DNA from: a virus
Lineage: Duplodnaviria > Heunggongvirae > Uroviricota > Caudoviricetes
Virus record (IMG/VR): IMGVR_UViG_2690316068_000002
DNA: 64,000 bases
Direction: 5' to 3' (one strand)
Positions within the stretch are counted from its first letter, which is position 1. Every line of letters begins with the position of its first letter. Positions 2,019-56,939 of the stretch are shown here, piece by piece. The notes beneath the pieces are model-generated. The model was not told where the DNA came from. It was given only the letters and a program-made list of their open reading frames with translations, and did no database searches. A program made the translations under genes and the position numbers.

Positions 2019-2828
2019 TCATCCAATAGTGTACTCCGCTACAAACTTCTTAACGATCGGTGATTCTTCGTTCAATGTTAGATTTCCACCGTCTCTAACG
2101 GCAACTCCTGTCGCTGGAAATACAGCCATCATTTGCCCAGCCTGAGTTGACGCAGTGTTAAGCGGATACGGTTTTTCTGGATTGCTCATTAAAGCAATCT
2201 TAATACTATTACTTGTAGCCTTCTTTTCTGTGAGAAGGTGTCTCATGGAAATTACCGTGTAAACACTAATATCTGGACCTCCGCTAAACCAATTAAGAAG
2301 GTTTAATATCTTATCCTTTGCTTTGACAGGCGCGTTTTCGTAAGCGTCTAAGAAAATATCTGTTTCTAATCCTGCTTTATTGAAAAACGAATCATCTTTA
2401 TCACTTAAAGTAAAACGAGGACCTCTTGCAGTACGCGCTTTTTTATTTGTGTTGCTATCATTTGACTGTTGAACTTTTAATTCATCATTAACATCAACAC
2501 ACTCTTCAACCTCAATCAATCCCAATTGTTCTGGCTCGTTTTCGGCAGATTCAACACTTTCAGCGTTAATTACGTTTATAGGCTCATGCGCTAACTCCAA
2601 CTCATTTAAAGCAGAGCTGAAATCACCTGCTTTTTCTTCATTGAACAGTTCTTCGGCAACATCATCAGAACTCATGGCTACGCCAGCATCGAGGCCGAGC
2701 AGCAGATCGTCAATATCATCAGTATTTTCAACCTGTGCGGCTTTTTTTACTGGTTCATCAAGTGATTGCAACATGGCTGTCAGCTCGTCCAGATCATCAT
2801 TTGTCATTACATTTTCAACCGAACTCAT
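2019..2828 (-). CDS. hypothetical protein with strongly acidic N-terminal half
   Basis: 269 aa ORF; N-terminal ~130 aa very rich in D/E. Confidence 0.5.
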   Translation of the reverse strand: MSSVENVMTNDDLDELTAMLQSLDEPVKKAAQVENTDDIDDLLLGLDAGVAMSSDDVAEELFNEEKAGDFSSALNELELAHEPINVINAESVESAENEPEQLGLIEVEECVDVNDELKVQQSNDSNTNKKARTARGPRFTLSDKDDSFFNKAGLETDIFLDAYENAPVKAKDKILNLLNWFSGGPDISVYTVISMRHLLTEKKATSNSIKIALMSNPEKPYPLNTASTQAGQMMAVFPATGVAVRDGGNLTLNEESPIVKKFVAEYTIG

Positions 2829-2942
2829 GTAAGTCTCCTTCTGCTTGGTTACATTTGCGTTTCGATAGCTACATTTTGACTAAACCTATCAGGCGGAAAA
2901 GTATTAAATACAGGCAGGAAATGATTGAAAGGCGGCTGTTCT

Positions 2943-2983
2943 TTAAAAGAAAGCCTGCTTTAAACTCTCTTTAAAGCAGGCTT
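2943..2983 (-). terminator. rho-independent terminator candidate after exonuclease gene
   Basis: aaagcctgctttaaa...tttaaagcaggcttt stem followed by T-rich tract. Confidence 0.45.
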
Positions 2984-2988
2984 TTGTT

Positions 2989-3543
2989 TTACACAATTTC
3001 AGAGGGTAATTTAAAAAATCCGTACTTATTACGTGCCTTAAAGAAGCATTGCATCATTAAGTTTGTGTCATATAAGGCACTATGTGCTTTAGTATGATCG
3101 TACATAAAGCCAAGAGAGAAGGCCAACTCTTCAAGGCGGGGACGTTTACCGTCTTCTGTGGCCCACAGGGAAAATATAGTGTCAATCAATGGGATGTCTG
3201 GAAGCGAAAAACCGTAACTTTTCAGCTCATGCCTAATAAACGGAATATCGAACGCTTCGCCGTTGTGGGCTATCCAAATATCGGAAGAAGAGAGATACGA
3301 AGCGACAGATGAAGCGTGATCGGCTAGTAACGGCTCGGCGGCTAAATCTTCAAGACTGATGCCGTGTACCGCTTGCGCTTTCGGATCGATACTGCGACGC
3401 GGGTTGAACCGCATTACAAAACTATCAACCATTGTCTGTGTCTCCAGTTCATAGCGGGTAATTGCGATTTCAATAATTTTATGACCAGCAAGGAAATCCA
3501 GTCCCGTAGACTCGATATCGATGCCTGCAACAATCGTTGTCAT
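2989..3543 (-). CDS. DnaQ-like 3'-5' exonuclease (DEDDh family, Pol III epsilon-like)
   Basis: Exo I motif VAGIDIESTGL near N-terminus; H-x4-D motif (HSALYD) near C-terminus; 184 aa. Confidence 0.75.
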   Translation of the reverse strand: MTTIVAGIDIESTGLDFLAGHKIIEIAITRYELETQTMVDSFVMRFNPRRSIDPKAQAVHGISLEDLAAEPLLADHASSVASYLSSSDIWIAHNGEAFDIPFIRHELKSYGFSLPDIPLIDTIFSLWATEDGKRPRLEELAFSLGFMYDHTKAHSALYDTNLMMQCFFKARNKYGFFKLPSEIV

Positions 3544-48312: not shown

Positions 48313-49116
48313 CTAGTATCCAAGAAAATCAGTATCTTTCTCTAATCTTATTTTTTCCAGCTTATACGATCCTGGAGGGCACTTCATTTTGTAGATTTCG
48401 ATACCTGAATCAAATAGTTGATGAACATAATTTTGAAGTTGACTGCTAGCCTTACAACCTATTGTTATTTCCTTAATTAAGGATTTATCAAATAATTTCA
48501 CGCCACAATTCTCGGTTACGATTCTAACCTCCTCTTCATATTCCCAGACATCGCTTTTATTTAGGCAAAGAGCCGCTGCAATCTCTTTATCTGAGTCGGT
48601 AAAAAAATTTACAACCGGAACATCAGAGGAATATTTGACCTCACCGCGAACAAAAAAACCATCATCAAACGCATTTATAAAACCATCATCAAATCCGATG
48701 CAAAAACCAGAGTGAGAATGCGCATAATGCGACCACATAAGATAATTATCTGGTCTTTTTGTCAAACAAATAACTCCCCGACACTGCAGAAAAGTTGTTC
48801 TAATCATATAGTTATCAAAACTGCGACTATGTTCTGTTTGACTCAATAACCAGCGTTCAAATTCATCATTGTGATGATTAGGCCAAAGCTCAAAAAATCT
48901 TTTCTTAATGGCGTCTATATCAGCATCATAATCAAAATTAACTTTAAACTCGGCAGGATCGTTGAAATCATTCGGACGAGTTGCTCGAATTTTCCCATCT
49001 TCTAAGTAATACTTTAAATACTTTATTGTGTCTTCCGGGACGCTACTTCCAACATATTTGTAAAGCATAAATATACCTTTTAAGAGAAGGCGTCTAATCA
49101 CGCCTTCTCTTATCAA
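48313..49116 (-). CDS. hypothetical protein, DUF2971-like pattern, low GC
   Basis: 267 aa; YLKYYL...NDFNDPAEF...W-HYA-H-G-C-GF resembles DUF2971 as I recall it; AT-rich codon usage. Confidence 0.45.
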   Translation of the reverse strand: MIREGVIRRLLLKGIFMLYKYVGSSVPEDTIKYLKYYLEDGKIRATRPNDFNDPAEFKVNFDYDADIDAIKKRFFELWPNHHNDEFERWLLSQTEHSRSFDNYMIRTTFLQCRGVICLTKRPDNYLMWSHYAHSHSGFCIGFDDGFINAFDDGFFVRGEVKYSSDVPVVNFFTDSDKEIAAALCLNKSDVWEYEEEVRIVTENCGVKLFDKSLIKEITIGCKASSQLQNYVHQLFDSGIEIYKMKCPPGSYKLEKIRLEKDTDFLGY

Positions 49117-49472
49117 CCTTTCTTCATCAACTCGCGTTTGATTTCATCGGTACGCATCGTTACGTCGGCAGCTGTGATCGCCTCGTTAAGTTTCACGATG
49201 TCCTCGATTTCCTGCGGTGACTTCTCTGCCAGATGGAAAATGGCTGCTCGAATCACGTCAGAACGAGTGAACTTCTCGAAGCGAGGGATGAACTTCATCA
49301 TCTCCAGCAGTTCGAAGTATTCGTCCTCCAGTGACATTGTGCGGCTTTTAATTTTCTCTTTGCCACGAGTCGGGCGTCCCTGTGGTCTGACTGGTTGGCG
49401 CAAAGGAGTTGTGTTCTTAGCCGGTGCATCAGGCTCTTTGCGCTTTGCTAGGTCACCCATTTTCATGGACAT
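49113..49472 (-). CDS. putative partition protein (ParA partner, ParG/ParB-like)
   Basis: 119 aa basic N-terminus; translationally coupled downstream of ParA-like gene. Confidence 0.45.
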   Translation of the reverse strand: MSMKMGDLAKRKEPDAPAKNTTPLRQPVRPQGRPTRGKEKIKSRTMSLEDEYFELLEMMKFIPRFEKFTRSDVIRAAIFHLAEKSPQEIEDIVKLNEAITAADVTMRTDEIKRELMKKG

Positions 49473-50140
49473 TATTCTTCTTCCTCCAGACTCAACAGAT
49501 AATCTACAAATTCTTCAAACTCGGCTTCCGCCTTTTTGTCGCGCTCGCTACCGGTCATTTCAAAGATAGAACGACCAGACTCTTCCGCATCATCATAGAC
49601 GTTGCGGTTATATAGATTGACTGGCGCAGACTCGATTCCAAACGTCTCAACAATCTCTTTAGCCGCCAGAATGCGAGACACTTGTGATGGCAAAGCCGGG
49701 CACTGGTTCATGACCGCGCGGACCTTCACTTTATCGTTTACATTGCGAACATTGTCGATAATAGGATCGATGTCACGTAAAGATTTCAAATCACGACGCT
49801 TAGGACGCAGCGGGATAATGATAACGTCAGCCATCAGCATCGCTTGTCGCTGAATTTCGGAGTCGAAGCCACCAGCATCTACCACTACAAACTCAGCTCT
49901 ACCCTGAAGCGATTTTAGGTGCTTAATGATGTCATCCTGAACGTATGCAAAAGGAATCAGCTCAAGGTCTTCGTTCTGTCGACGGTCTTCACACCAGCTC
50001 GTTGTCGTGCGCTGAATATCTATATCGGTAATATAAACCTTCTTCTTCTTTTTGACTTTCAGGCAAACGGCAATTTGCTGGGCAACGGTGGATTTGCCAG
50101 GCCCGCCCTTTGTGCCGCCAACCACAAAGATCTTGGTCAT
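49472..50140 (-). CDS. parA: ParA/ParF-type partition ATPase
   Basis: Deviant Walker A TKGGPGKST (KGGxGK[ST]T with signature lysine); VVVDAGGFD; 222 aa. Confidence 0.7.
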   Translation of the reverse strand: MTKIFVVGGTKGGPGKSTVAQQIAVCLKVKKKKKVYITDIDIQRTTTSWCEDRRQNEDLELIPFAYVQDDIIKHLKSLQGRAEFVVVDAGGFDSEIQRQAMLMADVIIIPLRPKRRDLKSLRDIDPIIDNVRNVNDKVKVRAVMNQCPALPSQVSRILAAKEIVETFGIESAPVNLYNRNVYDDAEESGRSIFEMTGSERDKKAEAEFEEFVDYLLSLEEEE

Positions 50141-50321
50141 TGGAGAGTTCCCTTTGCGTATATAATTATCGTCTGAAACAACTTGTTTTCTTATATGTGA
50201 TATAGCCTAAATGCCTACGGCTGCGGTGTAAAGGTTAAATGGTAGGTTGTGATTAACAATTGGCAATCATAGCTTGTATTTGTCTGTTGAAAAAAGTAAC
50301 AATGACCTCTATATTACAAGT

Positions 50322-50340
50322 ACGGTGATATGCCGTACAC
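50322..50340. promoter_or_regulatory. palindrome GTACGG-tgatatg-CCGTAC upstream of toxin-antitoxin operon
   Basis: Inverted repeat in the promoter region, candidate antitoxin operator. Confidence 0.35.
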
Positions 50341-50458
50341 AATTTGATAATGCACACGTAATGGGCTATAGCCTTTTAAAGTAATTTTTGAGTCGAAAAC
50401 TCAGTTTGAACAGAGGAGATTGATGGCCTTCCTACATCACGGCCATCAGGAGGAATAC

Positions 50459-50728
50459 ATGTCAGCACTAAAAAAGCAGCGCATCGATTTGAGATTAACC
50501 GATGACGATAAAAGCATCATCGAGGAAGCTGCCGCAATGTCTAACCAGAGCATTACTCAGTTTATGGTTAGCAGTGCATCTGAACGTGCCGTGAAAGTTA
50601 TAGAGCAACACCGTAGACTAGTTCTGAATGAAGAATCCTGGAATCTGGTTATGGACGCTATAAGCAATCCTCCGGCACCGAACGACAAGCTGAAACGAGC
50701 TGCTGATCGTCTGAAAAGCATGGAGTAG
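50459..50728 (+). CDS. DUF1778-family antitoxin (TacA/KacA-like, RHH)
   Basis: ORF 50420..50728 trimmed to ATG for MSALKKQRIDLRLTDDDKSIIEEAA (AGGAGG RBS), a typical DUF1778 antitoxin N-terminus. Confidence 0.75.
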   Translation: MSALKKQRIDLRLTDDDKSIIEEAAAMSNQSITQFMVSSASERAVKVIEQHRRLVLNEESWNLVMDAISNPPAPNDKLKRAADRLKSME

Positions 50729-50735
50729 TTTACTC

Positions 50736-51257
50736 GTGAGCAATACAACGATAGAGATTTTCTCTGGAGAGAAAGATTATGATCTAAACGGTTTTGATTG
50801 CGGCGAAGAGTCACTAAACGCCTTTTTAGCCAACCACTTAAAAAGGCAGCATGAGGGAAAAATTCTTCGTGCTTATGTGCTTTGCACTCAAGAAGAAAGG
50901 CCAAAAGTGTTAGGATATTACACTTTGTCAGGTAGTTGTTTTGAAAAGGAGTCCTTACCTTCAAGAAGCAAACAAAAGAAGGTTCCTTATCGGAATGTTC
51001 CAAGTGTTACTTTGGGTAGGCTGGCTTTGGACAAGTCCCTTCAAGGTCAAGGATTTGGCTCAATGCTTGTAACACATGCAATGCGCGTTGTGTACAATGC
51101 ATCTCTTGCTGTAGGCATTCATGGACTTTTCGTTGAGGCGTTAAATGACAAAGCCAAGGCGTTTTATAAAAGTTTAGGCTTTATCCAGCTGGTTGGTAAC
51201 AACGAGCGTTCTTTGTTCTATCCTACAAAATCTATCGAAAAATTGTTCGAAGAATAA
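50736..51257 (+). CDS. GNAT-family acetyltransferase toxin (TacT/KacT/AtaT-like)
   Basis: 173 aa, 8 nt downstream of antitoxin; GNAT motif A LQGQGFGSMLV; C-terminal AFYKSLGF; non-ATG start. Confidence 0.75.
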   Translation: MSNTTIEIFSGEKDYDLNGFDCGEESLNAFLANHLKRQHEGKILRAYVLCTQEERPKVLGYYTLSGSCFEKESLPSRSKQKKVPYRNVPSVTLGRLALDKSLQGQGFGSMLVTHAMRVVYNASLAVGIHGLFVEALNDKAKAFYKSLGFIQLVGNNERSLFYPTKSIEKLFEE

Positions 51258-51258
51258 T

Positions 51259-51281
51259 GTGTTCCCCTCATTTGAGGGGAA
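51259..51281. terminator. hairpin terminator between convergent toxin and spanin genes
   Basis: GTTCCCCTCA-ttt-GAGGGGAAC. Confidence 0.5.
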
Positions 51282-51289
51282 CTTCGACA

Positions 51290-51475
51290 TCACCAACCAC
51301 AAACCCTCTCTCCCATCGTATTGTGAAAAAGGATTTGGCGTTCGGTTTCTTCAGTCATTACATCATTATTGCTGATATAGATAGGCTCAGCCCCATCGCA
51401 GAACAACACGCTGGCTGTTTGTGGTTTAATGACGCACCCACTTATCATACAACTCACGATGAACGGCAGAAGCAT
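51290..51475 (-). CDS. putative o-spanin (Rz1-like lipoprotein)
   Basis: Lipobox ISGC after hydrophobic N-terminus; starts inside the 3' end of the upstream gene in another frame. Confidence 0.35.
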   Translation of the reverse strand: MLLPFIVSCMISGCVIKPQTASVLFCDGAEPIYISNNDVMTEETERQILFHNTMGERVCGW

Positions 51476-51677
51476 CTTTCTGACGTATTTTACTGCTCGT
51501 CTCATTCACCACTTTCACTGTGTTTTGAAGTCGTTTTCTGTCTTCCTGTTTTGCCTTCTCTTCCATTGCTCGTCGCGCCGCATTCCCGCCCATCGTGTAA
51601 GCGCCGACAAGAACGAAAAGAACGGCAGCCAGCGTAATCAAAGCAACTTTTAGCTTTGTCATCAGGCTGCCTAGCAT
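51426..51677 (-). CDS. putative i-spanin (Rz-like)
   Basis: N-terminal TM anchor followed by charged coiled-coil segment; downstream of endolysin candidate. Confidence 0.4.
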   Translation of the reverse strand: MLGSLMTKLKVALITLAAVLFVLVGAYTMGGNAARRAMEEKAKQEDRKRLQNTVKVVNETSSKIRQKDASAVHRELYDKWVRH

Positions 51678-52910: not shown

Positions 52911-55900
52911 TCAGTTACTTGTTGCCCCAACAGTACCTGCAAATTTCAGCCATTGACCTGACGGACTTCTATTACTACGGTAGTGATAAACGAGGATTGC
53001 GTTTGTAACTCCACCGTAGTCAGCTTTATGTGACGTTGTTAAACGAATTGTATAATCACCGTTAGGTAGATTAAAAACTTCGATTATAGATTCTGCTAAT
53101 TCTACAGCACCAAATCCCGTTATATTGTTGATACTGCCAGCATTGAATCCCATAGCATCGCCAAAGCCAATCCAATAACTTTTGCTAAACGCCCCATTTG
53201 ATTTTAGGTGGCTAATGAATGTGGACAAACTCATGCCCATATCCCCACCTGAAACAGAGGAAGTTCGCACAGTCATACTTGGAAGAGCACTGCTCTTCAC
53301 ATAGGAACTTAGAAGGTTTGTTACCTCTGTTTTCGTATAGGCATTAAGGTTAGCCGCAGTCAAAGTAATATCGGCAGAGCCATCAAACGCCACACCAGCA
53401 ATTTTCCTTGCTGTCTGCAATTTTGTGGCGGTGGCAGCATTACCAGTAGTGTTCTGATTACCGGTTGTATTCACACCAGGTATTGAATCCTTAGCGGTAT
53501 ATACCTGCGCCCACGCTGACCATGCCGCATCAGTGGTATCTCTTCGGGAGCGAATGAAAACCGGCGCATGTGCACCGCTCGTACCACTCCAGCCAATAAG
53601 CAACTCGCCCTCACCAGCAGCACTCGCACCTTTCATGTGCAATACGTTGCCATACGTGGTCGGGTAGCTATTGCTGTACGCCTCGTACATTTGAATGCCA
53701 GCAGTACCTTGAGCAGAACCGCTTAACGCCGTAACTCGGCCACGAGATACCAATGTATTAATGTTGATATCGCCTGAGCCATCAAACTTAACACCATTGA
53801 TGTTTCTCGCTGTTTGCAACTTCGTAGCTGTTGAAGCATTACCGTTCAAACTACCATTTACGCCACCAGTCACATTTAGTCCATTACCAATTGATACAGC
53901 ACCGCTGGTATTATTAATTGTAATAGGTCGCAAACCGTTCCATGAACCTAATGTGTCTCCTGATGCTGTTAGCATGAAATATGTGTTCGATCCATCATTA
54001 CGGATAAAGAACCCAAAGCTACCGTAAGCAATGCGGAAACCATTTGCATATTTTGAAATGATCTCGCCAGAAGATGTCAAACCTCCAGATAATGTACCAC
54101 CGGTAAGAGGTAATGCACCGACATCAGAGGCTGTTGGTTTGTTTTTCGTGTTATATACTCTTCGCCATCCTGGAGAATAATCTGTGCCATTAAATACATA
54201 GATAAACTCCGCATTAGTGAGAGCACCAGAGACACTCGTCGTTGTGGCCGTTGTTATACGGATCGTATAATTGTTTGAGCTACTACCGTTATTAAATACC
54301 TCTATAACAGCTCCTGCCAATGGAATAACGCCACAACCAGTTTCACTATTTGGTATGGTTGCACTATTGGCATAGGCCCACGCACATCGAGCAATCCATG
54401 ACTTTGTGTTAAATGCTCCATTATTTTGCAATAACGTCACTAACTGTGCTGTTGTTATTGCTCCGCCATTACTTCCTGTAGTTAACCAACCAGTAGGAGA
54501 TGCCGGGCAACCTATATTTGCTGGCGACAAGGAAATATTTGCCGAGCCGTCAAACGACACCCCATTAATAGTACGCGCAGTCTGCAACTTCGTAGCAGTA
54601 GCCGCGTTGCCCGTTGTATTCTGATTACCAGTCGTATTAACACCTGGCAAATTAATATTCGCAGTACCATCAAAGCTCACGCCGCCGATAGTTCTTGCCG
54701 TCTGAAGTTTTGTAGCAGTTGCAGCATTACCAGTGGTGTTCTGATTACCCGTAGTATTTACACCTGGAAGGTTGATATTTGCAGAACCGTCGAAACCAAC
54801 TCCACCGATAGATCTTGCCGTCTGCAATTTCGTTGCTGTACTTGCATTACCATTTAATGTTCCGGTGATCCCACCAGTAACAGACAACGGACCTGAAACT
54901 GTTCCTCCGGTTGTTGGCAGTGCACCAATATCTAACGGCGTCGGTTTCTGATGTGTGCTATACATCGTATAAACAACACCATCGGTAACGCTGGAAGGCT
55001 TACTCGCTGAATATGTTGGCGATGTATAAATAGAAACTGTCGCATTTGCAGTACAATCCCAATGGATATTTACACTCGTCGCATAATTGCCAATCTCAAC
55101 GTAAATATCATATGTATCGCCGGATGTGTTGATCCAGGCGAAATTCGTTAATCCGACAGCTGTACGCTTCCACAAAGCACCTGTAATCCCTTTGGGGTTT
55201 CCATTGCCTGCTCGTAGAACCAGTTCTGAAATGCCTGCCTGATGTGGGGAGCCGACGTTGTAACCAGCGCCACCAATCAATGCGATGTAAACGATGGAAC
55301 TCGCTTGTGGCATGGTAACCGTAGCCAGTTTGAACCACCCAGCCCCGCCAGAGAAAGACATCGTTACTGAATTTAAAGTACCAATATCTTTCGGCGTTAA
55401 TGTGATATCCGCAGTCAGTGCTTTACCGTTAACTTTTCGGTTAGATGGCACCCTGCTATTCGCATTGTCATTGGCTGCTTTAACTGCTTTTGGCGTTGCG
55501 GCCAGCGATTCACTGGTGCTGTCGACAGCACTGCTAAGTTTCACAACACCTTTAGTTGTAAGGCTTGCGTCTTCCATCGCAACTGCACCGGCAATCTCTT
55601 CAGCACGATCAGCAGCAGCTTCCGCACGGGTCGCAGCGGATTCAGCAGCAGTTTTGCTCTGAGATGCTGCCGTCGCACTGCCTGCCGCCTCTGTTGCTTT
55701 CGTGGATGCCGTCGTGGCACTGCCCTTCGCTGCTGACGCCTGTCTGGTCGCCTCATCTTTTGAAGCAGACGCAGATGATGCCGATGACGCTGCCGAACTG
55801 GCGGACGATGCGGCTGCCGTTTTTGAGGATTCTGCACGGGTTTCCGACGCTTTCGCGTTCGTTTCGGATGTCTTCGCTGCGGAAGCAGACCTCGCTGCTG

Positions 55901-56939
55901 CGCTGGCCTGTTCAGTGGCTTCGCCAGCCTTCGTTGTGGCTGTTGAAGCAGACGATGCGGCACTTTCTGCCGATTTTCCGGCGGCGGTGGCACTGGCTGA
56001 GGCCTGCCCGGCACTTGTTGACGCGGCACTGGCAGACGACGCAGCCGCTGTTTTTGAGCCTGCCGCAGCTGAGGCGCTCTGTCCCGCTGCCGTCTCAGAA
56101 GACCTGGCGTTCGTCTCGGACGTTTTTGCCGCCTTCGCGGAATTTCCTGCCGCCGTTGCCGAGGAAGCTGCGCTACTGGCGCTCAAGGATGCGTTCGTTT
56201 CTGATGATTTCGCTGCCTCTTTTGAGGCCGCCGCATCCCGGGCTGAGGTGGCAGCTTCTGACGCTTTCGTGGTCGCGGTGGATGCAGAAGTGGCTGCTGA
56301 TTGTTGTGACGCTGCGGCATTCGTTTCAGATTTTTTCGCAGCAGTTGCACTCGCACTTGCGGCACTTTGTGAGGATGCCGCAGCGGATGCACTTTGAGAC
56401 GCTTGAGAGGCTTTTTCTCCAGCGGTATTGGCGCTTTCTGCTGCTGCGGCAGCACTGGCCGCCGCCTCACGAGCTTTGTCGCCAGCAGCATCAATCGCGT
56501 CAGTGTTATTTTTATACCACTCAACGTTTTCGTTGTGCTCGTTGACGATCTGCATTAGCGGCTTAACGGTTACTTCTGTACCGTCTTCACGCTCGATTGT
56601 CACCTCATCCAGAGCAGTCAACCAACTGCGCATAGACTTGGAATCAGCCGACATACGCGACATTAGTGCTGTAAAGCGCGCGCTAAACTGTGTTAAGTCG
56701 CCTTCATAGGTCGTAATGATTCGGCACGGAACTTCAGACTGAGTTTCGCCGGTATAAGGTTCTGAGAGAACAATGTTCGTATCACTGGTTACGCGCTTGA
56801 TCTCATACAGCTTATTGTCGGGGCCAATGACGATCATCCCCGGCAACACACCATTAGCTGTTACGTTCCAGGCTGTCCCTGCCCCAACCAGAGTATTGCT
56901 ACCCTGTGTAAATGTGATAGTACCTTCCCTGTACCACAT
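52911..56939 (-). CDS. side tail fiber protein
   Basis: 1342 aa; long Ala/Ser/Thr-rich SETNA-type heptad low-complexity region; C-terminal tandem tail-fiber repeats GVNTTGNQNTTGNAATATKLQTAR-x-GVSFDGSANI. Confidence 0.8.
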   Translation of the reverse strand: MWYREGTITFTQGSNTLVGAGTAWNVTANGVLPGMIVIGPDNKLYEIKRVTSDTNIVLSEPYTGETQSEVPCRIITTYEGDLTQFSARFTALMSRMSADSKSMRSWLTALDEVTIEREDGTEVTVKPLMQIVNEHNENVEWYKNNTDAIDAAGDKAREAAASAAAAAESANTAGEKASQASQSASAAASSQSAASASATAAKKSETNAAASQQSAATSASTATTKASEAATSARDAAASKEAAKSSETNASLSASSAASSATAAGNSAKAAKTSETNARSSETAAGQSASAAAGSKTAAASSASAASTSAGQASASATAAGKSAESAASSASTATTKAGEATEQASAAARSASAAKTSETNAKASETRAESSKTAAASSASSAASSASSASASKDEATRQASAAKGSATTASTKATEAAGSATAASQSKTAAESAATRAEAAADRAEEIAGAVAMEDASLTTKGVVKLSSAVDSTSESLAATPKAVKAANDNANSRVPSNRKVNGKALTADITLTPKDIGTLNSVTMSFSGGAGWFKLATVTMPQASSIVYIALIGGAGYNVGSPHQAGISELVLRAGNGNPKGITGALWKRTAVGLTNFAWINTSGDTYDIYVEIGNYATSVNIHWDCTANATVSIYTSPTYSASKPSSVTDGVVYTMYSTHQKPTPLDIGALPTTGGTVSGPLSVTGGITGTLNGNASTATKLQTARSIGGVGFDGSANINLPGVNTTGNQNTTGNAATATKLQTARTIGGVSFDGTANINLPGVNTTGNQNTTGNAATATKLQTARTINGVSFDGSANISLSPANIGCPASPTGWLTTGSNGGAITTAQLVTLLQNNGAFNTKSWIARCAWAYANSATIPNSETGCGVIPLAGAVIEVFNNGSSSNNYTIRITTATTTSVSGALTNAEFIYVFNGTDYSPGWRRVYNTKNKPTASDVGALPLTGGTLSGGLTSSGEIISKYANGFRIAYGSFGFFIRNDGSNTYFMLTASGDTLGSWNGLRPITINNTSGAVSIGNGLNVTGGVNGSLNGNASTATKLQTARNINGVKFDGSGDININTLVSRGRVTALSGSAQGTAGIQMYEAYSNSYPTTYGNVLHMKGASAAGEGELLIGWSGTSGAHAPVFIRSRRDTTDAAWSAWAQVYTAKDSIPGVNTTGNQNTTGNAATATKLQTARKIAGVAFDGSADITLTAANLNAYTKTEVTNLLSSYVKSSALPSMTVRTSSVSGGDMGMSLSTFISHLKSNGAFSKSYWIGFGDAMGFNAGSINNITGFGAVELAESIIEVFNLPNGDYTIRLTTSHKADYGGVTNAILVYHYRSNRSPSGQWLKFAGTVGATSN
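53340..54900 (-). repeat. tandem ~123-bp repeats inside side tail fiber gene
   Basis: Four or five copies of the ~41-aa tail fiber repeat visible at DNA level. Confidence 0.6.

Follow-up and report, generated by a model that had tools for sequence, protein, structure and literature searches.

A probable AtaRT/KacAT-type toxin–antitoxin operon occupies an exchangeable slot beside the partition genes of the phage-plasmid Cyrano

In the 64,000-nt stretch of Caudoviricetes DNA analysed here (the window; IMG/VR virus record IMGVR_UViG_2690316068_000002), two plus-strand genes encode a DUF1778-family antitoxin (50459–50728) and a GNAT-family acetyltransferase toxin (50736–51257), as an original prediction made from the letters of the DNA had proposed. 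We conclude that they probably constitute a functional type II toxin–antitoxin operon of the AtaRT/KacAT group (GNAT/DUF1778 clade A), carried as an optional cassette by the phage-plasmid Cyrano, with a toxin that would acetylate aminoacyl-tRNAs and a plausible role in plasmid addiction. Over about 1.1 kb around the pair, the window and Escherichia phage Cyrano (OV696614.1) are 100% identical; Cyrano is plasmid pLF82 of E. coli LF82 (NC_011917.1), and the same 1.1 kb is also identical in many further E. coli plasmids of about 105–125 kb. Cyrano is an SSU5-like phage-plasmid present at about 5.5 copies per cell (PMC9928086). The pair is already known, annotated and published as a KacT-type toxin with its antitoxin, since OV696614.1 ('KacT acetyltransferase-type toxin' and 'putative antitoxin'), RefSeq ('TacA family antitoxin' and 'GNAT family N-acetyltransferase') and the Cyrano paper (PMC9928086) all name it, and toxin–antitoxin systems have already been placed in the shell genome of SSU5-type elements (PMC7969092).

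The antitoxin gene starts at ATG 50459, stops at TAG 50728 and encodes 89 aa (MSALKKQRIDLRLTDDDKS...), close to the roughly 90 aa first estimated. The protein belongs to the DUF1778/TacA family and is of the AtaR/KacA type, with an N-terminal ribbon-helix-helix DNA-binding part and a C-terminal toxin-binding part. It matches Pfam PF08681 (TacA1/DUF1778) over profile positions 1–79 of 80 (E = 5.7e-26; score 90.7 bits, cut-off 21) and aligns from first to last residue with the solved structures of KacA (6.6e-42) and AtaR (1.3e-40), to which it is 80.5% and 76.1% identical, respectively. The KacA DNA-contact residues R8, D10 and R12 are all kept, as are M65 and I68, which contact the toxin in KacA and take part in neutralisation; positions 70 and 77 carry N and K, the AtaR residues, whereas KacA has Q and R. 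A Shine–Dalgarno sequence, AGGAGG (50448–50453), lies 5 nt before the start codon. We rejected an N-terminally extended antitoxin of 101–102 aa beginning at TTG 50420 or ATG 50423, the latter being the start used in OV696614.1 (101 aa), because the 89-aa form aligns with AtaR and KacA from its first residue, the added residues are not conserved among related cassettes, AGGAGG precedes ATG 50459 by 5 nt and RefSeq also begins the gene at 50459.

The toxin gene follows after a gap that measures 7 nt rather than the 8 nt first reported, and runs from GTG 50736 to TAA 51257. Its 173-aa product (...AKAFYKSLGF...) is a GNAT acetyltransferase of the AtaT/KacT clade, in agreement with the kinship to TacT, KacT and AtaT initially claimed partly from its AFYKSLGF segment. 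Four GNAT Pfam families score over their cut-offs, and both solved toxins of the group match over nearly the whole length: AtaT (6gts_A, 1.4e-79, residues 1–172 aligned) and KacT (5zgn_C, 3.9e-75, residues 4–172 aligned to KacT 5–173). Its identity to AtaT is 69.4%. When the toxin is aligned with AtaT and the phage-plasmid alleles, the acetyl-CoA motif Q-G-Q-G-F-G and Tyr144 are invariant; Tyr144 aligns to KacT Tyr145, the residue swapped (Y145F) in the solved toxin-alone structure of KacT. The comparison with KacAT and AtaRT suggested at the outset yields full-length matches of both proteins to solved structures.

Upstream of the operon, the best promoter-like site of the region is a sigma-70-type TTGAAA-N17-TATATT (50287–50315, plus strand) that fits 10 of 12 consensus positions. 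A palindrome, GTACGG-N7-CCGTAC (GTACGGTGATATGCCGTAC; 50320–50338), begins 4 nt downstream of its −10 box and is the predicted site for two antitoxin ribbon-helix-helix dimers. Its place in the promoter region had been recognised correctly, and the end given for the region (51281) falls on the hairpin that closes the cassette, but the start given (50322) lies 2 nt inside the palindrome. In the 64-kb window the palindrome is the sole match to its pattern even at one mismatch, with 0.04 expected from shuffles. The half-sites and 7-bp spacing are the same in the 27-bp KacA operator duplex AAATGTACGGTTATTAACCGTACATGA (PDB 5ZGN, PMC6698736), and again in the E. coli O157:H7 ataRT promoter, which holds GTACGGTGACATACCGTAC 27 nt ahead of the start codon, compared with 120 nt in Cyrano. 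In a sample of 79 related SSU5-like loci from IMG/VR, the palindrome is present in all 42 slots bearing a toxin–antitoxin pair of this type (40 exact, 2 with one mismatch; 6 different spacers) and in none of the 37 without one (two mismatches allowed). Likewise, of 65 chromosomal enterobacterial loci that include an antitoxin gene, 63 have an exact copy upstream of it, and 64 scanned loci with the palindrome hold 47 distinct, mostly A/T-rich spacers. Invariant half-sites around a free spacer are the pattern of a protein-binding site, and the palindrome is, judged by its sequence, the operator of the AtaRT/KacAT family. The promoter TTGAA(A/T)-N17-TATA(T/G)T keeps its place relative to the palindrome in both phage-plasmid alleles of the pair, despite their differing surroundings.

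A 120-nt 5′ leader (50339–50458, plus strand) separates the operator from the antitoxin start and ends with the Shine–Dalgarno sequence; among relatives 14 to 165 nt lie between palindrome and ATG. We rejected a regulatory RNA in this leader, whose fold energy is no different from that of shuffled sequences (z = −0.30) and which has nothing above threshold in Rfam, only sub-threshold noise. At the other end of the operon, a G+C-rich hairpin of 9 bp (GTTCCCCTCATTTGAGGGGAAC; 51261–51282) between the convergent toxin and Rz1 stops is a likely terminator. It is scored as a terminator on the minus strand, where a T-rich tail follows, and its plus-strand tail is T-poor.

Promoter, operator, leader, both genes and hairpin together form an accessory cassette (about 50248–51289) between the conserved region upstream of parA and the Rz1 stop. 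Cyrano's homology to SSU5 and other SSU5-like elements ends about 107 nt upstream of the parA start codon (about 50247), and that to SSU5 resumes at the Rz1 stop (about 51290); SSU5 instead carries two genes of unknown function in this slot (SSU5_031/032; locus L002, 6096–7252). Alignments of the 79 slots show a common backbone limited to the first 100 nt or so after parA and to the sequence from the Rz1 3′ end onwards. The Cyrano-type pair fills 28 of the 79 slots, and a second GNAT/DUF1778 allele fills 14. This second allele (for example L047, L081 and the Kluyvera locus L146) resembles the Cyrano pair in slot, orientation, promoter–operator layout and half-sites, with an antitoxin 83–88% identical, but differs in a toxin only 60–63% identical, another terminator and a longer leader, with 140–241 nt from palindrome start to ATG. 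In some second-allele leaders (L067, L072, L078, L079 and L081), a varying count of GAAAACT/GAAAATC-like heptamer repeats lies between operator and start codon, so leader length differs among otherwise near-identical elements. The commonest alternative, in 30 loci, is a minus-strand operon of two genes in which a gene of about 130 aa overlaps one of about 250 aa (for example L005, L010, L012, L016 and L062), present in at least 5 divergent versions. These two genes have no Pfam or PADLOC match and correspond to phrog_2594 and phrog_3307, of unknown function; they could be an uncharacterised toxin–antitoxin or defence pair. The remaining slots hold a single gene of about 400 aa (3 loci), a single 183-aa gene (2 loci) or nothing but about 310 bp (2 loci). 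The alternative cassettes each bring their own hairpin at the same position.

Two further observations concern the cassette itself. In four loci (L004, L014, L025 and L040), the antitoxin gene is identical to that of Cyrano (dS, the synonymous divergence, is 0) and the toxin gene has a dS of 0.15–0.18, which points to recombination inside the cassette. In pTIC (L168, MF554642.1), positions 2819–3507, equivalent to window positions 50566–51254, carry aac(6′)-Ib-cr in place of the final 53 antitoxin codons and the entire toxin gene. The replacing segment, natural or engineered, has the same length as what it replaces (689 nt), its end coincides exactly with the toxin stop codon, and pTIC retains the promoter, the operator and a 37-codon antitoxin stub.

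Both genes of the pair are under purifying selection. The 28 Cyrano-type cassettes contain 16 toxin and 5 antitoxin nucleotide alleles; the toxin open reading frame (ORF) is full length in 27 and stops one codon early in the remaining one, and the GTG start is present in every allele examined. With the window allele as reference, the ratio of non-synonymous to synonymous substitution (dN/dS) is 0.05–0.15 for the toxin, taken across alleles whose synonymous divergence is appreciable, and about 0.035 for the antitoxin. Antisense ORFs over the pair (for example 50557–51003, minus strand, 148 aa) were treated as spurious because the plus-strand genes have full-length homologues under purifying selection. 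In LF82 lysogens, transcripts exceed the local prophage background 35-fold for the toxin and 60-fold for the antitoxin, and the Cyrano paper counts the pair among the morons expressed in the lysogen (PMC9928086).

The Cyrano allele is tied to plasmids. A search of 5,426 complete E. coli genomes places near-identical copies on plasmids in 175 of 175 cases and on chromosomes in none. The Cyrano-type cassette occurs in 145 PLSDB plasmids, 140 of them from Escherichia and most of them 105–125 kb long and non-mobilizable; its E. coli hosts come from dogs, pigs, poultry, soil, river water and humans. Chromosomal ataRT, with 66% nucleotide identity to the cassette, is found in about 1,626 of the 5,426 E. 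coli chromosomes (about 30%). At the livJ–panM site of LF82, the only chromosomal site scanned in that strain, ataRT is absent and a 187-bp gap is found. A scan of species-representative genomes with a 5-sequence toxin alignment placed the nearest relatives, 61–76% identical, across Enterobacterales; the same scan with a single toxin sequence returned no loci, its exact 8-mers being too allele-specific. Phage-plasmid genes lie within the 4-kb flanks of just 1 of 66 enterobacterial loci, a Kluyvera contig with the second allele. At most 71 of the 299 plasmid places lie in a genome that also has a chromosomal copy, where the 30% background predicts about 90; phylogeny is uncontrolled and plasmid types are mixed in this comparison, which is too coarse to bear interpretation. 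Across the AtaRT/KacAT group the antitoxin is better conserved than the toxin and the operator is shared, so the chromosomal and phage-plasmid copies are likely to cross-talk at the level of transcription and may cross-neutralise.

Characterised relatives suggest how the pair would work. AtaT, KacT and AcaT acetylate Gly-tRNA and hydrophobic aminoacyl-tRNAs in vivo, and AtaT is counteracted by peptidyl-tRNA hydrolase (PMC9177977). KacA blocks acetyl-CoA binding and dimerisation of KacT, a T-A2-A2-T hexamer (KacA4KacT2) binds both operator arms, and control of the KacAT promoter operates by conditional cooperativity (PMC6698736), which has been demonstrated for KacAT only. By close homology to these systems we infer toxicity, neutralisation, tRNA targets, antitoxin lability and an addiction role for the Cyrano pair, and regulation and neutralisation are expected to follow KacAT. 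The toxin would transfer acetyl groups from acetyl-CoA to the amino groups of the amino acids that charged tRNAs carry; for clade A, these charged tRNAs would be Gly-tRNA and several tRNAs carrying hydrophobic amino acids; the ribosome could not use the acetylated tRNAs and translation would stop. The C-terminal part of the antitoxin would wrap the toxin in a T-A2-A2-T heterohexamer, blocking acetyl-CoA binding and toxin dimerisation, and the two ribbon-helix-helix dimers of the hexamer would occupy both GTACGG half-sites just past the −10 box, repressing the operon in a manner dependent on the toxin:antitoxin ratio. In the plasmid state the pair would be expressed constitutively, and a cell losing the approximately 5-copy element could not renew its protease-labile antitoxin, leaving the toxin to arrest it. 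Such post-segregational killing would supplement the adjoining ParA partition system.

Comparison with known systems supports the assignment and shows where Cyrano departs from each. The pair has all the sequence-level features that define the AtaRT/KacAT group (operon order, DUF1778 antitoxin, GNAT toxin and operator sequence) and, as is typical of addiction modules, a low-copy extrachromosomal location. AtaR–AtaT of E. coli O157:H7 (PDB 6GTS, 6AJM, 6AJN and 6GTO–6GTR) has the same antitoxin-first operon with a 6-nt gap, compared with 7 nt in Cyrano; the antitoxins of the two systems are 88–89 aa and the toxins 173–175 aa long, the identities come to 76% and 69%, and the operator half-sites, tyrosine and acetyl-CoA motif are common to both. 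However, ataRT is chromosomal, between livJ and panM, whereas the Cyrano allele is found on plasmids alone. KacA–KacT of Klebsiella pneumoniae (PDB 5ZGN and 5XUN), similar in antitoxin, toxin and operator as described above, is likewise a chromosomal locus, of clade 1 in Klebsiella (PMC9431474). For an addiction role the precedent is GmvA–GmvT of the Shigella virulence plasmid pINV, a GNAT/DUF1778 pair on a large low-copy plasmid with partition systems, which stabilises pINV and also a test plasmid more than 100-fold in a Lon-dependent manner (PMC6519299). We liken GmvAT to the Cyrano pair by proposed role and by family, not by GmvT sequence; its replicon is no phage and its effect depends on temperature (21 °C). 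Doc of the phage-plasmid P1 is a Fic-type kinase that targets EF-Tu. Phd–Doc is a type II pair made of unrelated proteins and is the addiction module of a phage that lives as a low-copy plasmid (PMC7969092, PMC6698736), although Phd–Doc is persistent in P1-like elements and the Cyrano pair is an optional cassette.

A plasmid addiction role, which the original prediction favoured over phage–phage competition, is plausible for the Cyrano pair because the allele is restricted to plasmids (175 of 175), adjoins the partition genes of a low-copy replicon and has a precedent in GmvAT. Several observations weigh against this interpretation. We found no experiments on the Cyrano pair in the literature searched. 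The GNAT pair is missing from 37 of the 79 related slots, 2 of which are empty, and so is not needed for the upkeep of this type of element, and in pTIC most of the pair has been lost to a resistance gene. Cyrano has further toxin–antitoxin candidates, for example HicAB (PMC9928086), and any stabilising effect could therefore be redundant. The slot also behaves like an accessory or defence hotspot, with a match to the candidate defence family PDC-S31 beyond the partition genes, a property that would suit competition or defence equally well.

A broader proposal, which we regard as tentative and rather doubtful, is that the parA–Rz1 slot is a conflict hotspot whose swappable cassettes decide whether phage-plasmids coexist or displace one another, with host-dependent cross-talk through the shared operator. 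The operator half-sites and antitoxin DNA-contact residues are near-invariant across the group, and chromosomal AtaR, present in about 30% of E. coli, would thus be expected to repress an incoming copy. AtaR might also neutralise the Cyrano toxin in an anti-addiction capacity, and in that event the effect of the module would depend on host genotype. A related explanation keeps the same toxin–antitoxin pair but holds that it is selected for conflict with other mobile elements and not for post-segregational killing, either through abortive infection, in which an incoming lytic phage would switch off host transcription and leave the antitoxin to decay, or through exclusion or displacement of competing SSU5-like phage-plasmids with a different cassette. 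The slot is highly polymorphic, with at least 6 states in 79 loci, and its two-gene cassettes have very divergent alleles, a pattern often shown by conflict genes. Lysogens express the pair, varied defence systems have been reported on SSU5-group elements (bioRxiv 10.1101/2025.09.12.675607), and the neighbouring gene with the PDC-S31 match (E = 3e-41) encodes a DUF2971 protein and gives way to a GIY-YIG nuclease gene in a near-identical relative. However, neither antitoxin nor toxin matches any of the 5,027 models of PADLOC-DB 2.0 (E ≤ 0.01), a full-text literature search gave no report of phage defence by the GNAT/DUF1778 family, and plasmid stabilisation is the sole tested biological role of any plasmid-borne family member (PMC6519299). 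We consider selection for conflict unlikely.

Much less probable still is that the pair is a moron that benefits the host, its toxin being triggered stochastically or by stress to produce non-growing LF82 cells tolerant of antibiotics and macrophages, an effect that has been proposed for Salmonella TacT and Klebsiella KacT. KacT overproduction does bring antibiotic tolerance (PMC9431474), and LF82 is an intramacrophage persister-forming strain with the pair among its expressed morons (PMC9928086), but the tolerance phenotypes of the relatives stem from overexpression, the allele follows the phage-plasmid and not a host lineage or niche, its hosts ranging from dogs to river water, and Cyrano-like plasmids are absent from the other adherent-invasive E. 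coli (AIEC) strains studied (PMC12931692). Finally, an ordinary non-toxic acetyltransferase beside a small gene that is merely a transcription factor, or an inactive remnant of a pair, could be read into the weak sub-threshold NCBIfam matches of the toxin to RimI and other acetyltransferases and into its bare RefSeq name, but is exceedingly improbable for a protein with full-length 69% identity to a toxin of proven activity, an intact key tyrosine and cofactor motif, strong purifying selection on both genes, a retained operator and a chromosomal homologue that RefSeq names as the toxin AtaT.

The genes flanking the toxin–antitoxin operon agree with its original placement between partition genes and a lysis cassette. 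On one side is a ParA-type ATPase gene (49472–50140, minus strand) with a small partner gene beside it; on the other are the minus-strand lysis genes Rz1, Rz, endolysin and holin, with Rz1 convergent with the toxin gene. The partner of parA is a 119-aa gene (49113–49472, minus strand) that overlaps the ParA stop codon and is labelled 'RelE/ParE putative toxin' in the Cyrano record. We consider this label unsupported because the gene has neither a Pfam match nor a significant match among solved structures. It is kept at 92–100% in 78 of 80 related loci, and in the other 2 the retrieved sequence stops short of its position; from position and conservation, a function as the centromere-binding partner of ParA is more likely than one as a toxin. 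The DUF2971 protein introduced above (267 aa; CYRAN_30, 'hypothetical') is encoded next to it at 48313–49116 on the minus strand. Close copies of this gene (at least 99% identity) are present in just 3 of 80 related loci, and the near-identical relative NZ_CP082122.1 has the GIY-YIG 'LEM-3-like' gene in its place, so that 48313–49116 looks like a second accessory slot on the opposite side of the partition genes.

Two observations concern annotation farther along the minus strand. The annotated Rz1 is a 39-aa product (51290–51409) that leaves out the signal peptide. Its frame runs on upstream (51290–51505) to a start giving MLLPFIVSCMISGC..., with a lipoprotein box ISGC and an overlap with the Rz 3′ end, and this longer form is the more plausible candidate for the outer-membrane spanin. 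Beyond the lysis genes, a tail fibre protein of 1,342 aa (52911–56939), labelled a P1 S-fibre homologue in the Cyrano record, contains a long Ala/Ser-rich low-complexity stretch and repeated 'NTTGNQNTTGNAATATKLQTAR' units.

Family, structure, operator and enzymatic mechanism are established for this group of toxin–antitoxin systems, and alone the Cyrano pair matters little. What our analysis adds is comparative: an exact operator that extends across the family, with invariant half-sites and a free spacer, and the recognition that a recombination slot adjoining the partition genes of SSU5-like phage-plasmids takes several alternative cargos, the pair among them. SSU5-like phage-plasmids are common in clinical Enterobacteriaceae, and this slot, together with the possible cross-talk with chromosomal ataRT, would offer a tractable system in which to ask how toxin–antitoxin modules may benefit phage-plasmids.

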